Positions 55,005-64,000 of a DNA stretch of 64,000 bases are shown piece by piece. Within the stretch, counting starts at the first letter, position 1, and every line of letters begins with the position of its first letter. Under the pieces are notes generated by a model, which worked only from the letters and a program-made list of their open reading frames with translations, searched no databases and was not told the origin of the DNA. The stretch lies in the sequence record NC_052660.1. The stretch is one strand, 5' to 3'. Both the position numbers and the translations under genes were made by a program. The DNA is from Escherichia phage tuntematon.

Positions 55005-57601
55005 TGAGTAAGTTTACATGGGATATTGAAGCAAACGGATTGTTGAATAATGACACTATTGATTATTTAGCTAGTCCTTATCGTCTCAAAGACACATTTC
55101 AAATGCACTGTATTGTCTTAGAGAACCATGAAACAGGAGAAATAGTAGCTTTCCACGATGGCCCTAAATACATCTTTGATGGGCGTCCTTATGAAGAGTC
55201 AGATGGTAAATACACATATGTTCTTAAAGAGTATGTGGCGCAAGATTACACACATTTTCAACTAAAAGATTTCCCAGATTTTATTAATCATGAAGGTTAT
55301 TTTAAAGACAAGCCTGAATATCTGGTTGAAATGGCTGTGGCTCACAACGGTATCAACTACGACTGGTTGGCTACAAAACTGTTTTATGGATTAGATTACA
55401 GTGTTAAATATAATACGTGGGGCAAAAATAAGGTAAAACTTATTGACTCCTTGATTTTGAGTAAAGTGTTAAACCCAGATCGAAAGATTGAGGGCAAATC
55501 AGGACATAGCTTGGCAGCACTTTCTCGAAAAGCAGGTGGTGATGTAAAAATAGATTTCCGTAAAGAGATTCCAGAAGAAGATCGATTTAAGACTTTTGCT
55601 GCGGATATGCTTTATTACTGTATCTATGACAACAAAGCCAATACGAGCGTATATAATTACCTTATGGAAGAATGGGGTGATTATGATAAATGGGAAGGTC
55701 CATTTGAACTTGAACAACGTGTAGCAGACATTATTACACGTCAGGAACACCGTGGATTTGCTTTTAACATGAAACAAGCAGAAGAGAACCTTGCTTTTTT
55801 GGATGCAGAAATGGAGCGTCTTCGTTTACTCGTTGAGCCTATTTTGCCACCTAAACCAGCAACAAAAGGTTATCTTAAGGCTTTTATTCCACCTAAGTTG
55901 CAAATTAAAAAGAACTTAGAGCCAACTAACCATATGATCAATTTTGCTAAGAAACATGATGGTCATTTGGAAGAGAGGGATGGCGATTGGTGGTTAGTTA
56001 TGTTGGGGAAAGAGTGGAAACTGCCAGTTGCAGCAGATGAACCTCTATGTGATCCTAACATTCCTGCAACATTGAACGATACAACCCATATTAAAAACTG
56101 GCTTGTAGGATTAGGTTGGGTACCATCTGAATATAAAGATAAAGACTTGACTCTTAAATCTGGCACCAAGATTAAAAAGAGCGAGGAAGAACTTCAGAAA
56201 GGTATTCGAGCTTACGTTGAGCAAACTCTATCTTCTAATTTTTGTCAGGATCGTTGTGATCATCTGGAGTGCACACCGGAAACCCTGGAAAGGAAGATTC
56301 AAGAGCGTATAGCAAAAGGTAAAGGTCGCGGTCTTAAAGTATTGACTAACCCATGTTTTACCAAAGGTCAGGAAAAAGAAATTTGTCCTAACCTGCAAGC
56401 TTTGGGTGAGAAGTTTCCTTATGCTACACAGATTGTAGAATACTTAACGTATAAGCATCGTAGGAACTCTATTTTAGGTGGCGGTGCTGATTGGGAAGAA
56501 GATGAAGAAGATCAAGAATACGATAAAGGTTTCTTAGCCGCAGTAAGGGCGGATGGGCGTATTCCTACCCCAGCCGCTACATGTGATGCTGCAACCTCTC
56601 GTATGAAGCATAGATCTGTAGCTAATATTCCTCGTGTCACATCTTTGTTTGGATGGGAGATGCGTAACTTGTTTGGTGTAGAGGTTCCTAAATACTTCCA
56701 GATCGGCTACGATTTCGACTCTTTGGAAGCAAAAATTGAATCACACTACTGTTGGCGGTACGAGCCGGAGCCACACGAATATTGTAACGCTCTGTTGTTA
56801 GAGAAACCTAACGATGTTCACACAATGATGGCAAAACGTATCACTGAAACTATTGGACGTAAATTTGAACGTAGTCCTGCTAAATCTGTTAAGTATGGTA
56901 TTACCTATGGTGCACAAGCCGACAAGGTTGCTAAAACAATTGGTAGCGATAAGTTTACAGGTCAATTGGTGTTTGATGCTTTCTGGGAAGCTGCATTCCC
57001 ATTGGCGCGTCTTAAAGAACGTTTAAACGATTTCTGGGTTAAGACTGGTAAACAATATGTTTTGGGTATTGACGGTCGTAAGGTTCCTACTCGTTCTGCT
57101 CACGCGATTCTTAACTCTCTATTCCAAAGCGGCGGGGTTATCTGTGCTAAACGTGCAATGGTTATTTATGACGACATGATCGAAGAAGAAGGGCTAAGTG
57201 TTGACTTCTTTAAAGATGACTGGAAGAATAAAGACTTCGTGCAACAAATGATCGCATATCACGATGAAGCCCAGCTTGAAGTTTCTCGTAACCTTGTAGA
57301 ATTTAAATGGTTTTCACCTGAATCATTAGGTTGGAAGAAAGTAGACGATCCTGAAGAACAAAAGAAAATTGATAAAGAATGCCTTGCTAAAGTTGAAGAA
57401 TGGAAGCATAATAAGGAAAAAGAGACGGGACAAATTTGGGCTAACATTCATGAATCTCCCAAAGGTGGATGGTTTACAGCCTATAGTCGGGCAGGTGAAC
57501 TTGCTGCTTTAGCTGTTACTAAGGCTGGAGAATTTTACAATCTTAATGTTCAGCTTACTGCCGGATATGATGTGGGTAACTCCTGGGCGTCCTGTCACTA
57601 G
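55004..57601 (+). CDS. family A DNA polymerase with 3'-5' exonuclease domain (T7 gp5-like)
   Basis: N-terminus FTWDIEANGLL...FHDGPKYIFDG parallels T7 gp5 IVSDIEANALL...FHNGHKYDVPA; 865 aa; GTG start overlapping MTase stop. Confidence 0.9.
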   Translation: MSKFTWDIEANGLLNNDTIDYLASPYRLKDTFQMHCIVLENHETGEIVAFHDGPKYIFDGRPYEESDGKYTYVLKEYVAQDYTHFQLKDFPDFINHEGYFKDKPEYLVEMAVAHNGINYDWLATKLFYGLDYSVKYNTWGKNKVKLIDSLILSKVLNPDRKIEGKSGHSLAALSRKAGGDVKIDFRKEIPEEDRFKTFAADMLYYCIYDNKANTSVYNYLMEEWGDYDKWEGPFELEQRVADIITRQEHRGFAFNMKQAEENLAFLDAEMERLRLLVEPILPPKPATKGYLKAFIPPKLQIKKNLEPTNHMINFAKKHDGHLEERDGDWWLVMLGKEWKLPVAADEPLCDPNIPATLNDTTHIKNWLVGLGWVPSEYKDKDLTLKSGTKIKKSEEELQKGIRAYVEQTLSSNFCQDRCDHLECTPETLERKIQERIAKGKGRGLKVLTNPCFTKGQEKEICPNLQALGEKFPYATQIVEYLTYKHRRNSILGGGADWEEDEEDQEYDKGFLAAVRADGRIPTPAATCDAATSRMKHRSVANIPRVTSLFGWEMRNLFGVEVPKYFQIGYDFDSLEAKIESHYCWRYEPEPHEYCNALLLEKPNDVHTMMAKRITETIGRKFERSPAKSVKYGITYGAQADKVAKTIGSDKFTGQLVFDAFWEAAFPLARLKERLNDFWVKTGKQYVLGIDGRKVPTRSAHAILNSLFQSGGVICAKRAMVIYDDMIEEEGLSVDFFKDDWKNKDFVQQMIAYHDEAQLEVSRNLVEFKWFSPESLGWKKVDDPEEQKKIDKECLAKVEEWKHNKEKETGQIWANIHESPKGGWFTAYSRAGELAALAVTKAGEFYNLNVQLTAGYDVGNSWASCH

Positions 57602-59277: not shown

Positions 59278-60165
59278 ATGTCCGTAATTAATACTGAAAC
59301 TGATCGTAAAGGCAAAACTGTAACTTATGCAACTGGTATCGTAGACTACGTTAAACTGGATAAATTCGCTGAACCTAAAACTTTTCATTGGGAAGGAAAA
59401 ACGATTGTTTCAACTCACCGAGCTTCTCTTGTTCTGAAAGAGAAAGGTGCTAAACCAGATGAGAAAGGTGTTTGGATTTCTCTTGGTGACATTGAACTGA
59501 AAGAAGGTTATGAAAACCTACAAGTCAAAGAAGGTGATAACTGGATCACTATTGAAAAAGGTGTAGAAGTAAGTATTGATATTGATCGCGTTGATAATAA
59601 AGGCGGTAAAACTTACTACAATACTAAAAAATCTCGTATTACAGTATTGTCTACCGATGGTGTTCAGAAGTCTAACAAATCTTCTGGCAATAAGGGGTCC
59701 AACGATGCGGCTCCTAAACAATCCTATAAAAAACGTGATACTGTAGGTCTGGAAACTGGTCACGCAGTAAATGGTGCACTGGAACTGATTCGTAATGGTG
59801 TTAAAGGTGATGCTTTCGATATCGCTGGGGTTGTTCAATCTGCAACTGTCACACTGAAATCGGAAATTGCTGAATCTCGTGGCGTTGATATTAATGATTA
59901 TGATCTTGGGGCATCTGTTGGTCACGCTATCCTCAATGCTTGTAAAGACCATACCATTAAGACTGTATCTGTAGAAGATCTGATTGATTCTGCTCGTAAA
60001 GTTCTGGCTCTGTCTGATAAAGTTGCTGCTGCCATTCGTGGTTCCGCAGAACAACCTAAGAAAGAAGAGAAGAAAGAAGTTAAGAAACCTGAACCACAAC
60101 CAGAACCAACTCCAAGTAATCAAGAAGAACCTCCAATGGACTTCGACGATGATATTCCATTCTGA
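59278..60165 (+). CDS. ssb: single-stranded DNA-binding protein
   Basis: C-terminus MDFDDDIPF is identical to the E. coli SSB C-terminal tip as I recall it; acidic/Pro-rich linker; next to replication genes. Confidence 0.6.
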   Translation: MSVINTETDRKGKTVTYATGIVDYVKLDKFAEPKTFHWEGKTIVSTHRASLVLKEKGAKPDEKGVWISLGDIELKEGYENLQVKEGDNWITIEKGVEVSIDIDRVDNKGGKTYYNTKKSRITVLSTDGVQKSNKSSGNKGSNDAAPKQSYKKRDTVGLETGHAVNGALELIRNGVKGDAFDIAGVVQSATVTLKSEIAESRGVDINDYDLGASVGHAILNACKDHTIKTVSVEDLIDSARKVLALSDKVAAAIRGSAEQPKKEEKKEVKKPEPQPEPTPSNQEEPPMDFDDDIPF

Positions 60166-60193
60166 TCTTATTGATTTATAAAGAGTTTTTATA

Positions 60194-60224
60194 AAAGAAA
60201 GGAGCCATTTGGCTCCTTTTCTTA
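60194..60224. terminator. bidirectional rho-independent terminator between convergent genes
   Basis: ggagcc-attt-ggctcc flanked by A-run (left) and T-run (right). Confidence 0.75.
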
Positions 60225-62894
60225 TTTATAATTGGAAGGAATGTTGTTATAATCTGAAAGTTTTGTGCAATACCTGAATAGGTAACTATTAGCTACTCCG
60301 CCTAATGTATTTGTTAATGTTGTTCCTGTTCCTGTAAGATTTGTGCATCCACTAAAGAAAGAAGATAATGCTCCACGTTTACCACAAACAGTTAACCCTG
60401 GGTTGTCATTAAAGATTTTATTAAAATCTGTAAGTGCTAAACAACCTTGGAATGTAGCTGTTAAAGAGGTCACTTTCGTTGGAATATTATCAAACATTCC
60501 TGCTGGAACTTCTGCAAGAGAGGTGCAATCTTTAAAGGTGTAAGAATATCTTGTAACTTTTGATAGATTCTTAAATAAATCTGAAGGAATAGATGTTAAA
60601 GATGTACAACCTTCAAACGTGCTTGACATTGTTGTCAGCGAAGGAAATAAAGCATCACTGAATAATCCTTCAGGGATAGCTGTCAAACTTGTACAGCCAG
60701 AGAAGATACCACTTATAGATGTTCCGGTGTAAGATGTGTTACTAAAACAATCAGAAGTTATTCGTCTTAAGTTAGCACAACCTTTTAAGAATTGTGAGGC
60801 TGGGCTTGTAGAATAACCAATTCTGTTGCCGCCCCATAATTCTAAAAGATTTGGATTTGCTTCCATAGACACATCAACACTATTCACTACTGAAGCACTT
60901 GCAAATTCAATAGCCAGTCTATATTCTCCTGTTGGATAACTATCCACTGTAGAGAAAGCTTTATTTCTAAATATTACTTTATTTGAAGGTATTACAACGT
61001 CATCCACCTTAACTACAAAGTTAGCTGGTGTGACAGTACCCGATAAAATTGGGAACGTAATTGCCCCATCTGCCGAGTGGTTGAAATATCCGTTTAGAAC
61101 CGTTAAGCTACTACTAGGAGATGGAGCTAACTCCTTTCCCGCAACAGCATTCACCGTTAAATAAGAACTATCAGAAGCGGTAACAACACCTTGATACGTA
61201 GCTGTGCAACCAATCCTACAACCACCATCACCAACACCAGTTATTACACCAGTTGTAGGATCTACTGTAGCAACATTAGGATCTGTAGTTGTATACTCAA
61301 CAACCATACCAGGTAAGCTTGCTGCCCCTGTTGGCGTTATTTCTGCTACCATTGTTTGTGTTGTTCCTACATCCATTGCAGATAAGCTAGGGGTGTAAAC
61401 GCTCAATGTTGAAGCATATCCTCCAGAGGTATCTGATAAAGTTGTTCCTTCAGCGTTTAAGGCTGTCATACCTGCATCAAAACCACCTTCTGCATGGAAA
61501 GTCATTAAACCAGTAGATGATATTGTCATGTTTGCAGGGGCAGAAGAAGTGTATTTAATATCGAAAAGTTTACCTCCTTCTGGGCTAACAGAATGTGTCA
61601 ACTGTTTAGTTCCACCTACAATACAAATTCCTAAAGAATCTGTAGTTAAGCCAGTTGCCAGAATATCACCCGTAATCACGGAGCTTGCTATTGGTGTGAA
61701 TTTATTATAGTTTAGACCACTATTGAACAGATACGAGGCTTTCCCATCTTTCCAAATACCGGAATAATACATATCTCCATTATAAACGAAAAAGGTTCCT
61801 TGATAACCTAATTGGTTAGTAACATCCATATTCAGCGTATGAACGCTTGTGAGCTTGTTTATATCCCAAGAACCCACTCCTTCAGGTTTAACTGGTTTCC
61901 CCACTTGGAGTGGATCTCCGCTCGCAGAATCATACCCCAAACCTAAGTTTGCAGTGTAGTTCTTACCAATAGCCCACAAGGAATTATTGATCCCAACGAA
62001 AAAAGAGTGGCGGCTTGGTGGAAACTTCCATGTTGAGAAACCTGCTGCAAAGGTATCCAGTTTAGTGTAGGTTGTTTCTGTATTAGATCTAACATATAAG
62101 TAGTTTACTGTACCCGTGCCACCGGAGGTATCTCCTACAACTATTGTCTGGGAAACTGTATTGATGTAATCTTTGACATACACTGTTTCAGTAGCGGATA
62201 TCTTGGCATTGACAAAAGCTGTTGTTGTGTTATTATTACCTGCTAAACCTTTACTAGCTCCACAAACACGCAAGGTTCCCACATTGTTGACATAAGAGCA
62301 TTGGTTGTAACCTGCATCAAAAGCAACTGCTGCACTTGTTATCTGACGAGGAGTAGAAACTTCGTTAGTAGTACTTGCACCTAAACTACCTACTGTGTTT
62401 TGACCTGATCCATAAAGAACACCACTATTCATTAACCAGAGAGTGTTATTATATCCTCCCTTAACCTCTTTAAGATTAGCTAAAGAGATAGTCCCTGTTA
62501 TTACAGATGGAAAGCTGGTCCAAGTAGTTACACATGCGTCCGTACCACCTGCTGCTATAGATCCTACCAATCCTGCTGTCAATCCTGAATATTGCCATCC
62601 ACCACTGTTAGTTTTAATAACAAAACAACGATCTGCGGTAAACACATCCGCTACTACAGTAGAAGCTAAGTGGAAATTATTGAATCGTGCACTACGAGTT
62701 CCATCTGCAATCTCACCAAAGAGGTTTGCGCCTTGAGTAAACAATCTACCATCATTAAGCAAAATTGCTAAACTGCTGTTAGAATTACCAGCATTATCTG
62801 GGTAATCTAAAGCGATTACTTTTTTAACAATACCTGCTGGCAGAGGAACGACACCAGTGCTGGTCATAATAGTAAATATTGGAATTGGAAACAT
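60222..62894 (-). CDS. tail fibre / receptor-binding protein with C-terminal LRR-like repeats
   Basis: 890 aa; C-terminal repeats GCTSLTAIPEGLF, EGCTSLTSIPSDLF, KDCTSLAEVPAGMF, QGCLALTDF resemble BspA-type leucine-rich repeats; Gly/Thr/Ser-rich body. Confidence 0.65.
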   Translation of the reverse strand: MFPIPIFTIMTSTGVVPLPAGIVKKVIALDYPDNAGNSNSSLAILLNDGRLFTQGANLFGEIADGTRSARFNNFHLASTVVADVFTADRCFVIKTNSGGWQYSGLTAGLVGSIAAGGTDACVTTWTSFPSVITGTISLANLKEVKGGYNNTLWLMNSGVLYGSGQNTVGSLGASTTNEVSTPRQITSAAVAFDAGYNQCSYVNNVGTLRVCGASKGLAGNNNTTTAFVNAKISATETVYVKDYINTVSQTIVVGDTSGGTGTVNYLYVRSNTETTYTKLDTFAAGFSTWKFPPSRHSFFVGINNSLWAIGKNYTANLGLGYDSASGDPLQVGKPVKPEGVGSWDINKLTSVHTLNMDVTNQLGYQGTFFVYNGDMYYSGIWKDGKASYLFNSGLNYNKFTPIASSVITGDILATGLTTDSLGICIVGGTKQLTHSVSPEGGKLFDIKYTSSAPANMTISSTGLMTFHAEGGFDAGMTALNAEGTTLSDTSGGYASTLSVYTPSLSAMDVGTTQTMVAEITPTGAASLPGMVVEYTTTDPNVATVDPTTGVITGVGDGGCRIGCTATYQGVVTASDSSYLTVNAVAGKELAPSPSSSLTVLNGYFNHSADGAITFPILSGTVTPANFVVKVDDVVIPSNKVIFRNKAFSTVDSYPTGEYRLAIEFASASVVNSVDVSMEANPNLLELWGGNRIGYSTSPASQFLKGCANLRRITSDCFSNTSYTGTSISGIFSGCTSLTAIPEGLFSDALFPSLTTMSSTFEGCTSLTSIPSDLFKNLSKVTRYSYTFKDCTSLAEVPAGMFDNIPTKVTSLTATFQGCLALTDFNKIFNDNPGLTVCGKRGALSSFFSGCTNLTGTGTTLTNTLGGVANSYLFRYCTKLSDYNNIPSNYK

Positions 62895-62905
62895 TTAAAC
62901 CCTCC

Positions 62906-62931
62906 ATAAAAAGAAAGCCCCTTTCGGGGCT
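62906..62931 (-). terminator. terminator or attenuator between tail-fibre genes
   Basis: gcccc-tttc-ggggc followed on minus strand by TTTCTTTTTAT, then RBS GGAGGG. Confidence 0.6.
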
Positions 62932-62935
62932 TCTG

Positions 62936-64000
62936 TTATCGTGTTACAACAACCATGTCCACGATATCACCCACACCAGGATACGTTAATTGCAAAATTG
63001 TTACTGCGTTAGCAGTAGTTGCTATTTCTGTATCATTTAGTGCTCCATAAGACGCATCTAGTGTAACCGTGTGTCCCGTTGTATCTTGAATCAAATAAAT
63101 CATTGCTGAAAACGCTTTAGGTTTTGTAGAGCCAGTGACACCAGGCCATGCTCCAACTGTCAGAGCGTCAGTTACTGTAACAACATACATATTGGAAGTT
63201 CCAGAAGGAGTCCAAGATGCTCCAGAGTTGGCAGTAGTTGTTTCAAGTTCCATGAAACCTGCTGTAACTTTAGTTGGTGTTATAGCTTCCGTAGGATCTG
63301 ATCCTGATATTTCGATCCAGTTTCCATCAGAACGACCATACGTCAAGCCGTCTTGAGGGGCTTCTGGTATACTAGGAAGAGTTCCTATAAGTGTCCACGT
63401 AGAAGAATCTGTTTTCTTAAACACTGCTCCAGTGGTAGTATTGAAGGCGTAATCATTGATAACACCGTCTCCTGCGACTGGATTAGTTGTTGCTACAAAC
63501 CATTGTGCGCCGTCCTTACCGTTGGTCCCATTAGTACCATTGGTTCCGTTTGCTCCTGGATCACCTTTCTCACCTTTATCTCCCTTCTCGCCTTTGTCAC
63601 CTTTAATACTCCCCATGTCAACAAAAGATGCGGAATTGGTGTCTTGATCATAAGTATAGATGTAAAGATTACTGGTGTCTTCAGTTAAATAAGCATCGCC
63701 ATAGTTATTATAAACGGGGAGAGCTTCTCCATTTGCAACATGACCTTTAGCTGTAATAGATCTACCACCCAAACTACCCACATTGAGCCACGTTTGATTG
63801 TCGTCGATCCACACGTAAAGGTCATTTTTTACAATGTAGGCATCACCAACCTCCGCTACAGACGGTAGTTCTGAAACATCTGACAATTCGCCATTTACAG
63901 AAAGACCTGCACCAACCGGACCTTGGATACCTTGAACACCCTGTTCACCTTGTGGACCAGGATCTCCCTTATCTCCTTTGTCCCCCTTCTCTCCTTTTAA
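62936..64000 (-). CDS. collagen-like tail-fibre protein, 5' end beyond window
   Basis: Gly-X-Y repeats GDKGEKGDKGEKGDPGANGTNGTNGTNGKDG; frame stays open through 63887-64000 (KGEKGDKGDKGDPGPQGEQGVQGIQGPVGAG), so ORF-track start at 63886 (a TTG) is not the true start. Confidence 0.75.
   Translation of the reverse strand, partial: LKGEKGDKGDKGDPGPQGEQGVQGIQGPVGAGLSVNGELSDVSELPSVAEVGDAYIVKNDLYVWIDDNQTWLNVGSLGGRSITAKGHVANGEALPVYNNYGDAYLTEDTSNLYIYTYDQDTNSASFVDMGSIKGDKGEKGDKGEKGDPGANGTNGTNGTNGKDGAQWFVATTNPVAGDGVINDYAFNTTTGAVFKKTDSSTWTLIGTLPSIPEAPQDGLTYGRSDGNWIEISGSDPTEAITPTKVTAGFMELETTTANSGASWTPSGTSNMYVVTVTDALTVGAWPGVTGSTKPKAFSAMIYLIQDTTGHTVTLDASYGALNDTEIATTANAVTILQLTYPGVGDIVDMVVVTR

Follow-up and report, generated by a model that had tools for sequence, protein, structure and literature searches.

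Tandem tail genes closing the tail-fibre cluster of Escherichia phage tuntematon: a collagen-like fibre and a predicted propeller-Ig-LRR protein with an exchangeable C-terminal cassette

The window analysed here, a stretch of 64,000 nt from Escherichia phage tuntematon (NC_052660.1), ends on its right side with the final two genes of a Phapecoctavirus late tail-fibre cluster, which follow one another on the minus strand: a tail fibre gene with collagen-like repeats, cut by the window edge, and, behind it, the gene of an 890-aa modular tail protein whose C-terminal part is a recombination cassette. The whole is probably best explained as a fibre accompanied by a propeller-Ig-LRR protein with a swappable tip, with receptor-binding and hairpin roles that we infer from the data below. 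Both genes are already annotated in relatives, near-identical across dozens of genomes, and the present work is therefore a fuller description of a known locus and no discovery. The 674-aa fibre has been named TfpM2, and the 890-aa protein TfpM1 or "major tail fiber protein 1" (PMC12695924); the published descriptions consulted for both consist of size-based names and C-terminal variation, and the propeller-Ig-LRR architecture, the cassette limits and the hairpin are absent from them. Shown here is a cleanly bounded, naturally exchanged tip cassette, with its breakpoint, in one Phapecoctavirus tail protein. Among the coliphages used in therapy and biocontrol trials, Phapecoctaviruses rank with those of broadest host range (PMC10844046), and none of their several tail proteins has yet been matched to a particular receptor (PMC8594841).

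The source phage is a Phapecoctavirus, that is, a phAPEC8-like myovirus of the Stephanstirmvirinae, and the 69 phage records matched by megablast were nearly all phAPEC8-like coliphages. The Phapecoctavirus "tail protein" and "tail fiber protein" (TfpM1 and TfpM2) are the same genes in the same synteny, with no sequence difference. In relatives, the order is Caudo_TAP, a small ORF, a colanidase gene, a 671- to 674-aa fibre, an 843- to 903-aa RCC1 protein and then convergent replication genes, and deeper relatives show variants of the Caudo_TAP-colanidase-fibre-RCC1 arrangement. The initial annotation had described a convergent tail-fibre pair, which must be rejected, because the fibre gene and the 890-aa gene share the minus strand and are co-directional; the actual convergent partner of the 890-aa gene is a plus-strand gene of 295 aa (59278..60165). 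The features of the locus are collected in Table 1; an NCBIfam scan added just weak collagen-adhesin matches and one PARCEL-repeat match, all below threshold.

Table 1. Features at the right end of the window, in the direction of the minus strand
Feature	Position	Strand	Basis
Tail fibre gene (TfpM2), C-terminal 354 codons of 674 aa	62939..64000	-	open frame, phrog_15437, identity to ukendt
Collagen-like Gly-X-Y run, 10 triplets (third of four in the full-length protein)	63905..63994	-	Pfam Collagen, run count
Collagen-like Gly-X-Y run, 11 triplets	63503..63601	-	Pfam Collagen (best stretch, residues 133-165), run count
Foldon-like motif IPEAPQDGLTYGRSDGNWIEISG, candidate trimerisation element	63305..63373	-	phmmer, fragment residues 210-232
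Fibre C-terminal tip domain	62939..63304	-	PDB 9cuy_g, phrog_4549, Phage_phiTE_241_C in orthologues
Intergenic GC-rich stem-loop plus T-run	62904..62933 (stem-loop 62914..62933, GAAA tetraloop)	-	folding, conservation
890-aa modular tail protein (TfpM1), last gene of the tail-fibre cluster	60222..62894	-	identity to tuntematon protein, phrog_11922
RCC1-like beta-propeller (predicted), residues 1 to ~400	61695..62894	-	Pfam RCC1, Foldseek
Two Big_2 Ig-like domains, residues ~405-585	61140..61682	-	Pfam Big_2
Exchangeable cassette: linker, beta-sandwich (~595-690), LRR domain, downstream terminator	60162..61143	-	comparison with nieznany
Seven BspA/DUF285-like leucine-rich repeats, residues ~700-890	60225..60797	-	repeat motif, fold, homologues
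Bidirectional hairpin terminator separating the 890-aa gene from the convergent plus-strand 295-aa gene	60197..60220	.	terminator-like on both strands

The fibre gene had been proposed to be truncated by the window and wrongly started, and both points were borne out. Its frame runs from position 62939 to base 64000 without a single stop codon, compared with 19 and 32 stops in the other two frames, so that it is open to the edge. The TTG at 63886 taken as the start in the ORF track is an artefact, because the fibre ORF of relatives extends 320 codons past the edge: the orthologous ORFs of phages nieznany (the relative used for the extension, 99.4% identical over positions 62000-64000) and ukendt begin 960 nt further upstream and encode 674 aa. 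These extended ORFs also rule out an in-frame stop just past the edge. The window fragment is identical to residues 321-674 of the ukendt protein at 350 of 354 positions and, by eye, matches the nieznany translation residue for residue. It covers profile positions 315-655 of 656 of the tail fibre family phrog_15437 (E 5e-183), membership of which is supported by homology and by the same position in the genome (synteny).

The repeats of the fibre are collagen-like, as the initial annotation had it (Pfam Collagen, 39.1 bits for the fragment vs a cut-off of 27.2), but they are not long, the full-length orthologue having Gly-X-Y runs of only 6, 8, 10 and 11 triplets, the last two of which lie in the window. 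By run count and Pfam score these would class as collagen triple-helix repeats. A foldon-like motif matched T4 fibritin foldon chains in phmmer searches with borderline E-values (1v1h, 1.3e-3; 8udn, 5.8e-3), as well as, again at a borderline level, foldon-tagged spike constructs. Towards the C terminus, the tip shows similarity to phrog_4549 (E 8.6e-41), and the orthologues carry the precomputed Pfam family Phage_phiTE_241_C, while their N terminus, outside the window, contains Tail_spike_N (E 1.2e-19). The layout of the 674-aa fibre is thus a Tail_spike_N anchor, four short Gly-X-Y runs alternating with small beta domains, the foldon-like motif and a tip of the phiTE-gp241-C type.

Among known systems, the fibre resembles the long tail fibre of phiTE, a Pectobacterium phage (PDB 9cuy chain g, "putative tail fiber protein"; Phage_phiTE_241_N and Phage_phiTE_241_C), with homology over the last ~220 aa of the fragment in the window (fragment residues 130-351 vs chain residues 573-790, E 3.2e-8). 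The phiTE fibre is trimeric and sits on the baseplate wedge, and its N terminus is a helical bundle, in contrast to the Tail_spike_N anchor of the fibre described here; the phiTE paper makes no mention of collagen, and only the N-terminal 171 residues were modelled experimentally (PMC11972413).

Right behind the fibre stop codon (62936..62938), the stem-loop GAAGCCCC-GAAA-GGGGCTTT is followed by CTTTTT and, 8 nt past the stem, by the ribosome-binding site of the 890-aa gene (GGAGGG, 62900..62905). Its stem comprises 8 pairs, 5 of them G-C, with the U-tract directly behind, which is the structure of an intrinsic terminator, and the 51-nt intergenic segment folds with a minimum free energy of -15.8 kcal/mol (z -3.0). 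The stem-loop was found at the same position in 10 loci with differing stem sequences, down to a protein identity of 26%. When these were aligned by anchoring on the loop, a procedure that favours the structure, 98% of the cells were paired and six of the eight pairs showed compensatory changes; the canonical U-tract TTTCTTTTT was kept in every locus. The hairpin plus T-run noticed earlier is therefore real and, as a terminator-like element, conserved. It would most likely cut read-through into the downstream gene, and lowered read-through would yield less of the accessory 890-aa protein than of the trimeric fibre.

For its part, the hairpin beyond the 890-aa gene folds on the two strands with dG values of -17.6 and -18.2 kcal/mol (z -4.5 and -4.1), and in relatives the colanidase gene, too, has a GC-rich hairpin at its 3' side, the T-run there being no more than weak.

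Since hairpins follow the colanidase, fibre and 890-aa genes, every large receptor-binding gene here ends in one, a pattern that general protection of mRNA ends, or boundaries between cassettes, would produce. The intergenic hairpin may accordingly be a 3' stabiliser or processing site of the fibre mRNA, or else an efficient terminator, with the 890-aa gene relying on a late promoter concealed within the last part of the fibre gene, and with no attenuation of stoichiometry in either case. We regard this as possible and give it tentative credence. The canonical U-tract conserved behind the intergenic stem, and the ribosome-binding site that starts so close to that stem, argue against it. As to the hidden promoter, a sigma-70 scan from the hairpin to the ATG detected no promoter-like site, the nearest minus-strand match lying more than 400 nt upstream, which speaks against this version too; the scan covered sigma-70-type consensus sites only, and late phage promoters may differ from these.

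The 890-aa ORF itself was confirmed. Its product matches the "tail protein" of tuntematon, YP_009986504.1, at 100% identity and scores 1,345 bits against the tail protein family phrog_11922; by position, PHROG family and module homology it may be assigned as a putative virion structural or receptor-binding protein. The literature searched contained no virion proteome or structure that places it in the particle: the text of the rV5 proteomics paper lists other gene products, and the two "proteomics" papers on Phapecoctavirus are purely in silico.

The N-terminal two thirds of the protein had been overlooked and comprise an RCC1-like propeller, two Big_2 domains and a beta-sandwich (~595-690). 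Residues 1 to ~400 are predicted to form the propeller on the basis of both repeat signature and fold: Pfam RCC1 scored 23.9 bits (cut-off, 21.7), and Foldseek retrieved UVR8, RPGR, HERC2 and RCC1 at E 6e-12 with TM-scores, normalised to the target, of up to 0.69. WD40_RLD also matched (E 7e-11), its 42.5 bits being below the cut-off of 150. Pfam Big_2 was found in two stretches (37.3 bits vs 22.8), and this pair is 64% identical to the corresponding one in a phi92-like "tail carbohydrate esterase". The protein is therefore modelled as a string of globular domains, namely, propeller, two Big_2 domains, beta-sandwich and seven leucine-rich repeats (LRRs), the mutual arrangement of which is undefined because the full-length model reached a pTM of only 0.52.

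This model does not sustain the earlier designation of the protein as a fibre in the usual sense, no coiled-coil or beta-helix shaft being visible in it. A classical trimeric tail fibre or tailspike, which some records imply with the names "tail spike protein" and "tail protein", and PMC12695924 with "major tail fiber protein 1", is quite unlikely, given that neither the monomer model nor the domain searches revealed a coiled coil, beta-helix, triple beta-helix or foldon and that propeller, Ig, beta-sandwich and LRR domains are typically monomeric.

A likeness to the modular protein proposed here was found in the last lateral tail fibre gene of the Vequintaviruses (Bas57_0040 of MaxTheCat, "lateral tail fiber protein with intimin domain", 1,875 aa, at the rV5 gp27 position), which also closes the tail-fibre cluster with convergent genes next to it. 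The N-terminal ~195 aa of the two proteins are ~40% identical and both have Ig-like domains, but the Vequintavirus protein has double the length, and with the N-terminal 585 aa as query the match to it was confined to residues 1-195. Because these residues match the start of a fibre gene at the same position, the N terminus may be seen as the conserved end of the protein.

At the opposite end, residues 702-890 contain seven F-x-x-C-x-x-L-x-x-I/V-P repeats of 26 to 32 aa each, to be compared with the tandem units of about 23 to 28 aa, bearing the family motif, that define BspA-type/DUF285 repeats, and the modelled domain has an LRR solenoid fold. The window protein alone falls below the Pfam thresholds (DUF285, E 0.074, 13.2 bits vs 25; LRR_5, no match), so that the score by itself is insufficient. 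Among 66 homologues scanned, LRR_5 was detected in 29, DUF285 in 19 and LRR_8 in 15, with the consensus F..C..LTSIPEGLF.NN..VT.F. The BspA-type LRRs that the initial annotation had placed at the C terminus are thus supported, as BspA/DUF285-like (Pfam LRR_5, PF13306; DUF285, PF03382), by fold and homologues. Compared with surface proteins of this type, such as Treponema pallidum TpLRR (6mlx) and Bacteroides BACOVA_04585 (4fs7), there are only seven repeats here; they form the terminal part of a phage tail protein and are, by themselves, sub-threshold in Pfam. The family counts 13,814 representative clusters, mostly of very large cellular surface proteins, many of 2,000 to 7,000 aa, the bacterial members carrying the name BspA family surface proteins. 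That such a fold is unusual as a phage tip holds among characterised phages, but the databases contain many phage proteins with both the LRR fold and the name. A literature search for tail proteins of phages with LRR/BspA or RCC1 domains returned no relevant publications.

The LRR domain is not a constant part of the protein. In the comparison with nieznany, similarity stops at position 61144 and resumes at 60161, leaving a cassette with no nucleotide similarity between flanks that are 97.7 to 98.5% identical. The breakpoint, at about position 61143, is the motif YQGVVTASDSSYL; in the protein alignment the conserved motif YQGVVTA(S/E)DSSYL leads into one or another of at least four alternative C-terminal modules. 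Among ~63 isolates that have the N-terminal part (≥95% identity), the LRR tip was present in only 34. Thus, the N-terminal 585 aa are conserved, and the ~305 aa that follow make up, with the terminator downstream of them, a recombination cassette that is exchanged in relatives for unrelated tips. The alternative tip that occurs most often shows homology to the solved "tail fiber protein gp17" (9occ, E 2.5e-20) as well as to the RcGTA head spike fibre (6tb9, E 8e-14), which makes this a slot that fibre-tip domains of other phages also occupy. C-terminal differences in tail fibre proteins of the TfpM1/TfpM2 type are reported to track host-range groups (PMC12695924). With its bounds and breakpoint known, the cassette is a concrete handle for host-range engineering, and the LRR cassette is a first tractable example for asking what ligand a phage LRR domain has.

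Exchangeable C-terminal domains are likewise found in the Ackermannviridae tailspikes, with a conserved N-terminal part and a swapped distal domain (PMC11414711). The conserved part of the 890-aa protein differs in consisting of a predicted propeller plus Ig domains, with neither a Tail_spike_N nor a gp10-like anchor; Tail_spike_N does occur in its two neighbours, the fibre and the colanidase. A 396-aa chimera, P0041, was also considered as a recurrent natural variant and discarded, since it occurs on a single contig and the other ten members of its cluster are fragments or other forms.

In the modular reading, the propeller end would attach the 890-aa protein to the virion, at the baseplate or a neighbouring fibre, the Ig domains could serve as a spacer, and the LRR domain would be a distal ligand-binding module for some host-surface structure, so that a swap of the cassette would retarget the phage. 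For these phages, published work names the LPS core and enterobacterial common antigen as receptors, neither of them tied to a particular protein (PMC8594841, PMC11495123). A more specific proposal is that a monomeric RCC1-Ig-LRR adhesin docks via its propeller on the collagen-like fibre to give a branched receptor-binding unit, that the hairpin fixes about one adhesin per fibre trimer, and that the LRR ligand, protein or glycan, is of a kind undescribed for characterised phages; we consider this combination unlikely.

Adherence of phage particles to mucus has been associated with their Ig-like domains, and BspA-type proteins have been associated with binding to the host matrix. A decoration adhesin that anchors virions to animal mucus or to some other surface by way of its Ig-like and BspA-like LRR domains, binding no bacterial receptor, would fit these links and the cellular surface proteins that dominate the LRR family. 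This role of the 890-aa protein is very improbable, as its gene belongs to the receptor-binding cluster and, in exchanging cassettes, varies in the manner of a host-range determinant, as C-terminal differences in these tail fibre proteins are reported to go with the host-range groups mentioned above (PMC12695924), and as the module that fills the slot in sister phages shows homology to solved tips of phage fibres and spikes.

Finally, two homologues of the LRR domain were located on unrelated metagenomic contigs of phage size, one with a DUF4376 gene as its neighbour and the other amid enzyme genes.

The region belongs to an already known and annotated locus of a well-sampled phage genus. Megablast with 60000..64000 matched 69 phage records, nearly all of them phAPEC8-like coliphages (genus Phapecoctavirus), mostly at 95-99% identity. 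The 890-aa protein, whose 90% cluster has 134 members, matched the Escherichia phage tuntematon 'tail protein' at 100% identity. In the closest relatives the genes followed the order tail fibre assembly protein, small lipoprotein, colanic-acid-degrading tailspike (colanidase), 671- to 674-aa tail fibre, 843- to 903-aa tail protein and convergent replication genes, while deeper relatives retained, as a pair, a fibre with a phiTE-gp241-C tip (599-779 aa) and then an RCC1 protein (568-880 aa) as the last tail gene. In the nomenclature of PMC12695924 the fibre is TfpM2 (681 aa) and the tail protein TfpM1 (890 or 891 aa); variation lies mainly in C-terminal regions, and phi92-like phages are without TfpM1. 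What is added here is a domain-level reading of the 890-aa protein, precise limits for its exchangeable tip cassette, an alternative tip homologous to solved fibre tips, and the deep conservation of the intergenic terminator-like element.

Most of what the initial annotation observed held up, with corrections on three points (gene orientation, collagen run length and overlooked N-terminal domains), and its interpretation was partly supported. The 890-aa gene was found as an ORF, but the fibre and 890-aa genes, described as a convergent pair, lie in tandem on the minus strand; the convergent partner is the plus-strand 295-aa ORF, annotated in some related records as a single-stranded DNA-binding protein.

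Features of the locus and of its encoded proteins
Feature	Position	Strand	Remarks
DNA polymerase, 865 aa	55004..57601	+	Insert site near 56900; allele without insert
295-aa ORF, convergent gene	59278..60165	+	ORF list
Bidirectional hairpin terminator	60197..60220		Between 295-aa and 890-aa genes
890-aa ORF	60222..62894	-	ORF list
316-aa ORF, TTG start	62936..63886	-	ORF list; fibre frame
Foldon-like motif	63305..63373	-	Just ahead of fibre tip domain
Tail_spike_N domain	residues 12-77, full-length fibre		E 1.2e-19
Beta-propeller	residues 1 to ~400, 890-aa protein		AlphaFold2 model
Two Ig-like domains	890-aa protein		AlphaFold2 model
Beta-sandwich	residues ~595-690, 890-aa protein		AlphaFold2 model
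Repeat domain	residues ~700-890, 890-aa protein		AlphaFold2 model

Pfam placed RCC1 repeats and an RCC1-like domain within the first 330 residues of the 890-aa protein, two Big_2 domains at residues about 405-585 and, below threshold, a DUF285 match at residues 753-818. The AlphaFold2 model of the full-length protein (mean pLDDT 81, pTM 0.52) was confident in the domains and not in the linkers, and included the C-terminal repeats, whose structure prediction had been proposed as a check. Foldseek matched the N-terminal part to UVR8, RPGR, HERC2 and RCC1 (E down to 6e-12, target-normalised TM-score up to 0.69). The propeller and the Ig domains were overlooked in the earlier reading, made from the sequence alone. 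The last lateral tail fibre gene of Vequintavirus (1875 aa) occupies the same position as the 890-aa gene, and its start was ~40% identical to the first ~195 residues of the 890-aa protein, a likeness that fits with the N-terminus as the putative virion-attaching end. No virion proteome, structure or binding report covering the 890-aa protein was found in a literature search; the LPS core and enterobacterial common antigen have been reported as receptors of these phages, neither of them tied to a particular protein (PMC8594841, PMC11495123).

The C-terminus carries seven F-x-x-C-x-x-L-x-x-I/V-P repeats. A word-indexed search returned 309 homologues of this module, including proteins named 'BspA family leucine-rich repeat surface protein' and, from Caudoviricetes, 'leucine-rich repeat protein'; among the 66 homologues scanned with Pfam, LRR_5 (BspA type) was present in 29 and DUF285 in 19. 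In an exhaustive search the representative clusters numbered 13,814, and repeat proteins of very large size were frequent among them. Because of these homologue matches and family searches, the earlier call of BspA-type leucine-rich repeats (LRR) is correct at the fold and family level, although the window protein alone fell below threshold. Their description as unusual for a phage tip holds for characterised phages, no paper describing such a tip in one having been found in a literature search, whereas a library of predicted viral structures contains many phage proteins that share this fold and bear BspA or LRR names; LRR tips are therefore not so much rare as uncharacterised. Homologous repeats close a 1008-aa gpI-like baseplate protein in P2-like Klebsiella prophages. 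In Klebsiella phage ST16-OXA48phi5.4 (NC_049450; 1547-4573 in comparison locus L007), the C-terminal repeats of 'tail protein I' were ~33% identical to the LRR module. The Klebsiella 'tail protein I' repeats are a second, independent tie of this LRR type to a phage baseplate.

The 890-aa protein would belong with the modular receptor-binding proteins that have exchangeable tips. Across 20 aligned relatives the N-terminal 585 aa were conserved, and at least four unrelated C-terminal modules followed YQGVVTA(S/E)DSSYL. Nucleotide similarity to the related phage nieznany ran from 64000 down to 61144, was lost, and returned at 60161, four bases within the 3' end of the convergent gene. The N-terminal part, at an identity of at least 95%, was present in about 63 isolated phages, the LRR tip in only 34. 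Two solved structures, 'tail fiber protein gp17' (9occ, E 2.5e-20) and the Rhodobacter gene transfer agent's head spike fibre (6tb9, E 8e-14), are homologues of the commonest alternative tip, and this homology offers the best, if indirect, indication that the LRR domain would stand in a receptor-binding position. Adjoining the cassette edge, an extra 164-aa ORF separates the tail protein gene from its convergent neighbour in some relatives, namely nieznany, the related phage nepoznato and the L005 contig (8817-9311 in locus L008, 8711-9205 in L005). This ORF is annotated as an endonuclease, had no Pfam match and is missing from the window, where 60166..60221 is intergenic.

The fibre frame was open from 62939 to base 64000 (354 codons), with no stops against 19 and 32 in the other two frames. 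Nieznany, 99.4% identical to the window over 62000..64000, has a fibre ORF starting 960 nt upstream of its match to window base 64000, with a 674-aa product, and the same was observed in ukendt, another relative. The objection raised to the ORF-track start was therefore upheld, its TTG being an ORF-listing artefact; because the orthologous ORFs begin so far upstream, no in-frame stop lies just past 64000 in either relative. The full-length fibre contains four Gly-X-Y runs (6, 8, 10 and 11 triplets) with small beta-rich segments between them, of which only the last two lie inside the window, where the collagen-like stretches are therefore short and not, as had been stated, long. The motif IPEAPQDGLTYGRSDGNWIEISG gave borderline phmmer matches to T4 fibritin foldon chains (E about 1e-3), which it appears to resemble. 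The C-terminal part of the fibre had a homologue in phage phiTE, a 793-aa 'putative tail fiber protein' (9cuy chain g, E 3.2e-8), which we take to be the long tail fibre of that phage. The phiTE long tail fibre is a trimer located on the baseplate wedge (PMC11972413).

A 396-aa in-frame chimera was observed in a single contig (Logan contig SRR10359460_34, locus L002, 8001-9191), where fibre residues 1-74, encoded past the window edge, are joined to residues 569-890 of the 890-aa protein (window ~61190..60225). It keeps the Tail_spike_N anchor but has lost the fibre shaft along with the propeller and Ig domains, and its junction falls within a ~25-nt microhomology, CAA(A/G)GTGTTG..ACCGCT, common to both genes.

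The hairpin plus T-run reported between the two genes was present. The stem-loop, GAAGCCCC-GAAA-GGGGCTTT and then CTTTTT, begins two bases past the fibre stop codon, and the ribosome-binding site of the 890-aa gene, GGAGGG, starts 8 nt downstream of the stem. A GC-rich hairpin with a 4-nt loop and a T-run occupied the same place in all ten loci examined, including relatives with an RCC1 protein just 26-45% identical, and the stems varied (GCCCC/GGGGC, GCCTC/GAGGC, CCGCC/GGCGG, GGCTGTC/GACAGCC, GGCCCC/GGGGCC). In an ungapped alignment, anchored on the loop and hence biased toward structure, 98% of cells were paired and both sides had changed in 6 of 8 pairs, compared with 23-66% pairing once the 3' partner had been shifted by 1-3 columns; each hairpin was also an independent minimum-energy fold. 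A sigma-70 scan from the hairpin to the start codon detected no promoter-like site. The ten-locus conservation, the pairing and this negative scan establish a conserved terminator-like element between the fibre and 890-aa genes, for which a role as an attenuator setting protein ratios is plausible. It might possibly act as a 3'-end stabiliser, or as a full terminator, with the 890-aa gene transcribed from an unseen late promoter. Past the window edge, the colanidase gene is followed by a GC-rich hairpin, GAGGGGG..CCCCCTC, with a weak T-run (3985-4010 in L008, 6983-7004 in locus L001); thus, all three large genes for predicted receptor-binding proteins end in a hairpin.

The DNA polymerase of ukendt (1189 aa; 14394-17963 in L001) is interrupted after residue 632 by an in-frame insert of 325 aa, which begins with Cys, is followed by Thr and looks intein-like; that of another relative has 1110 aa.
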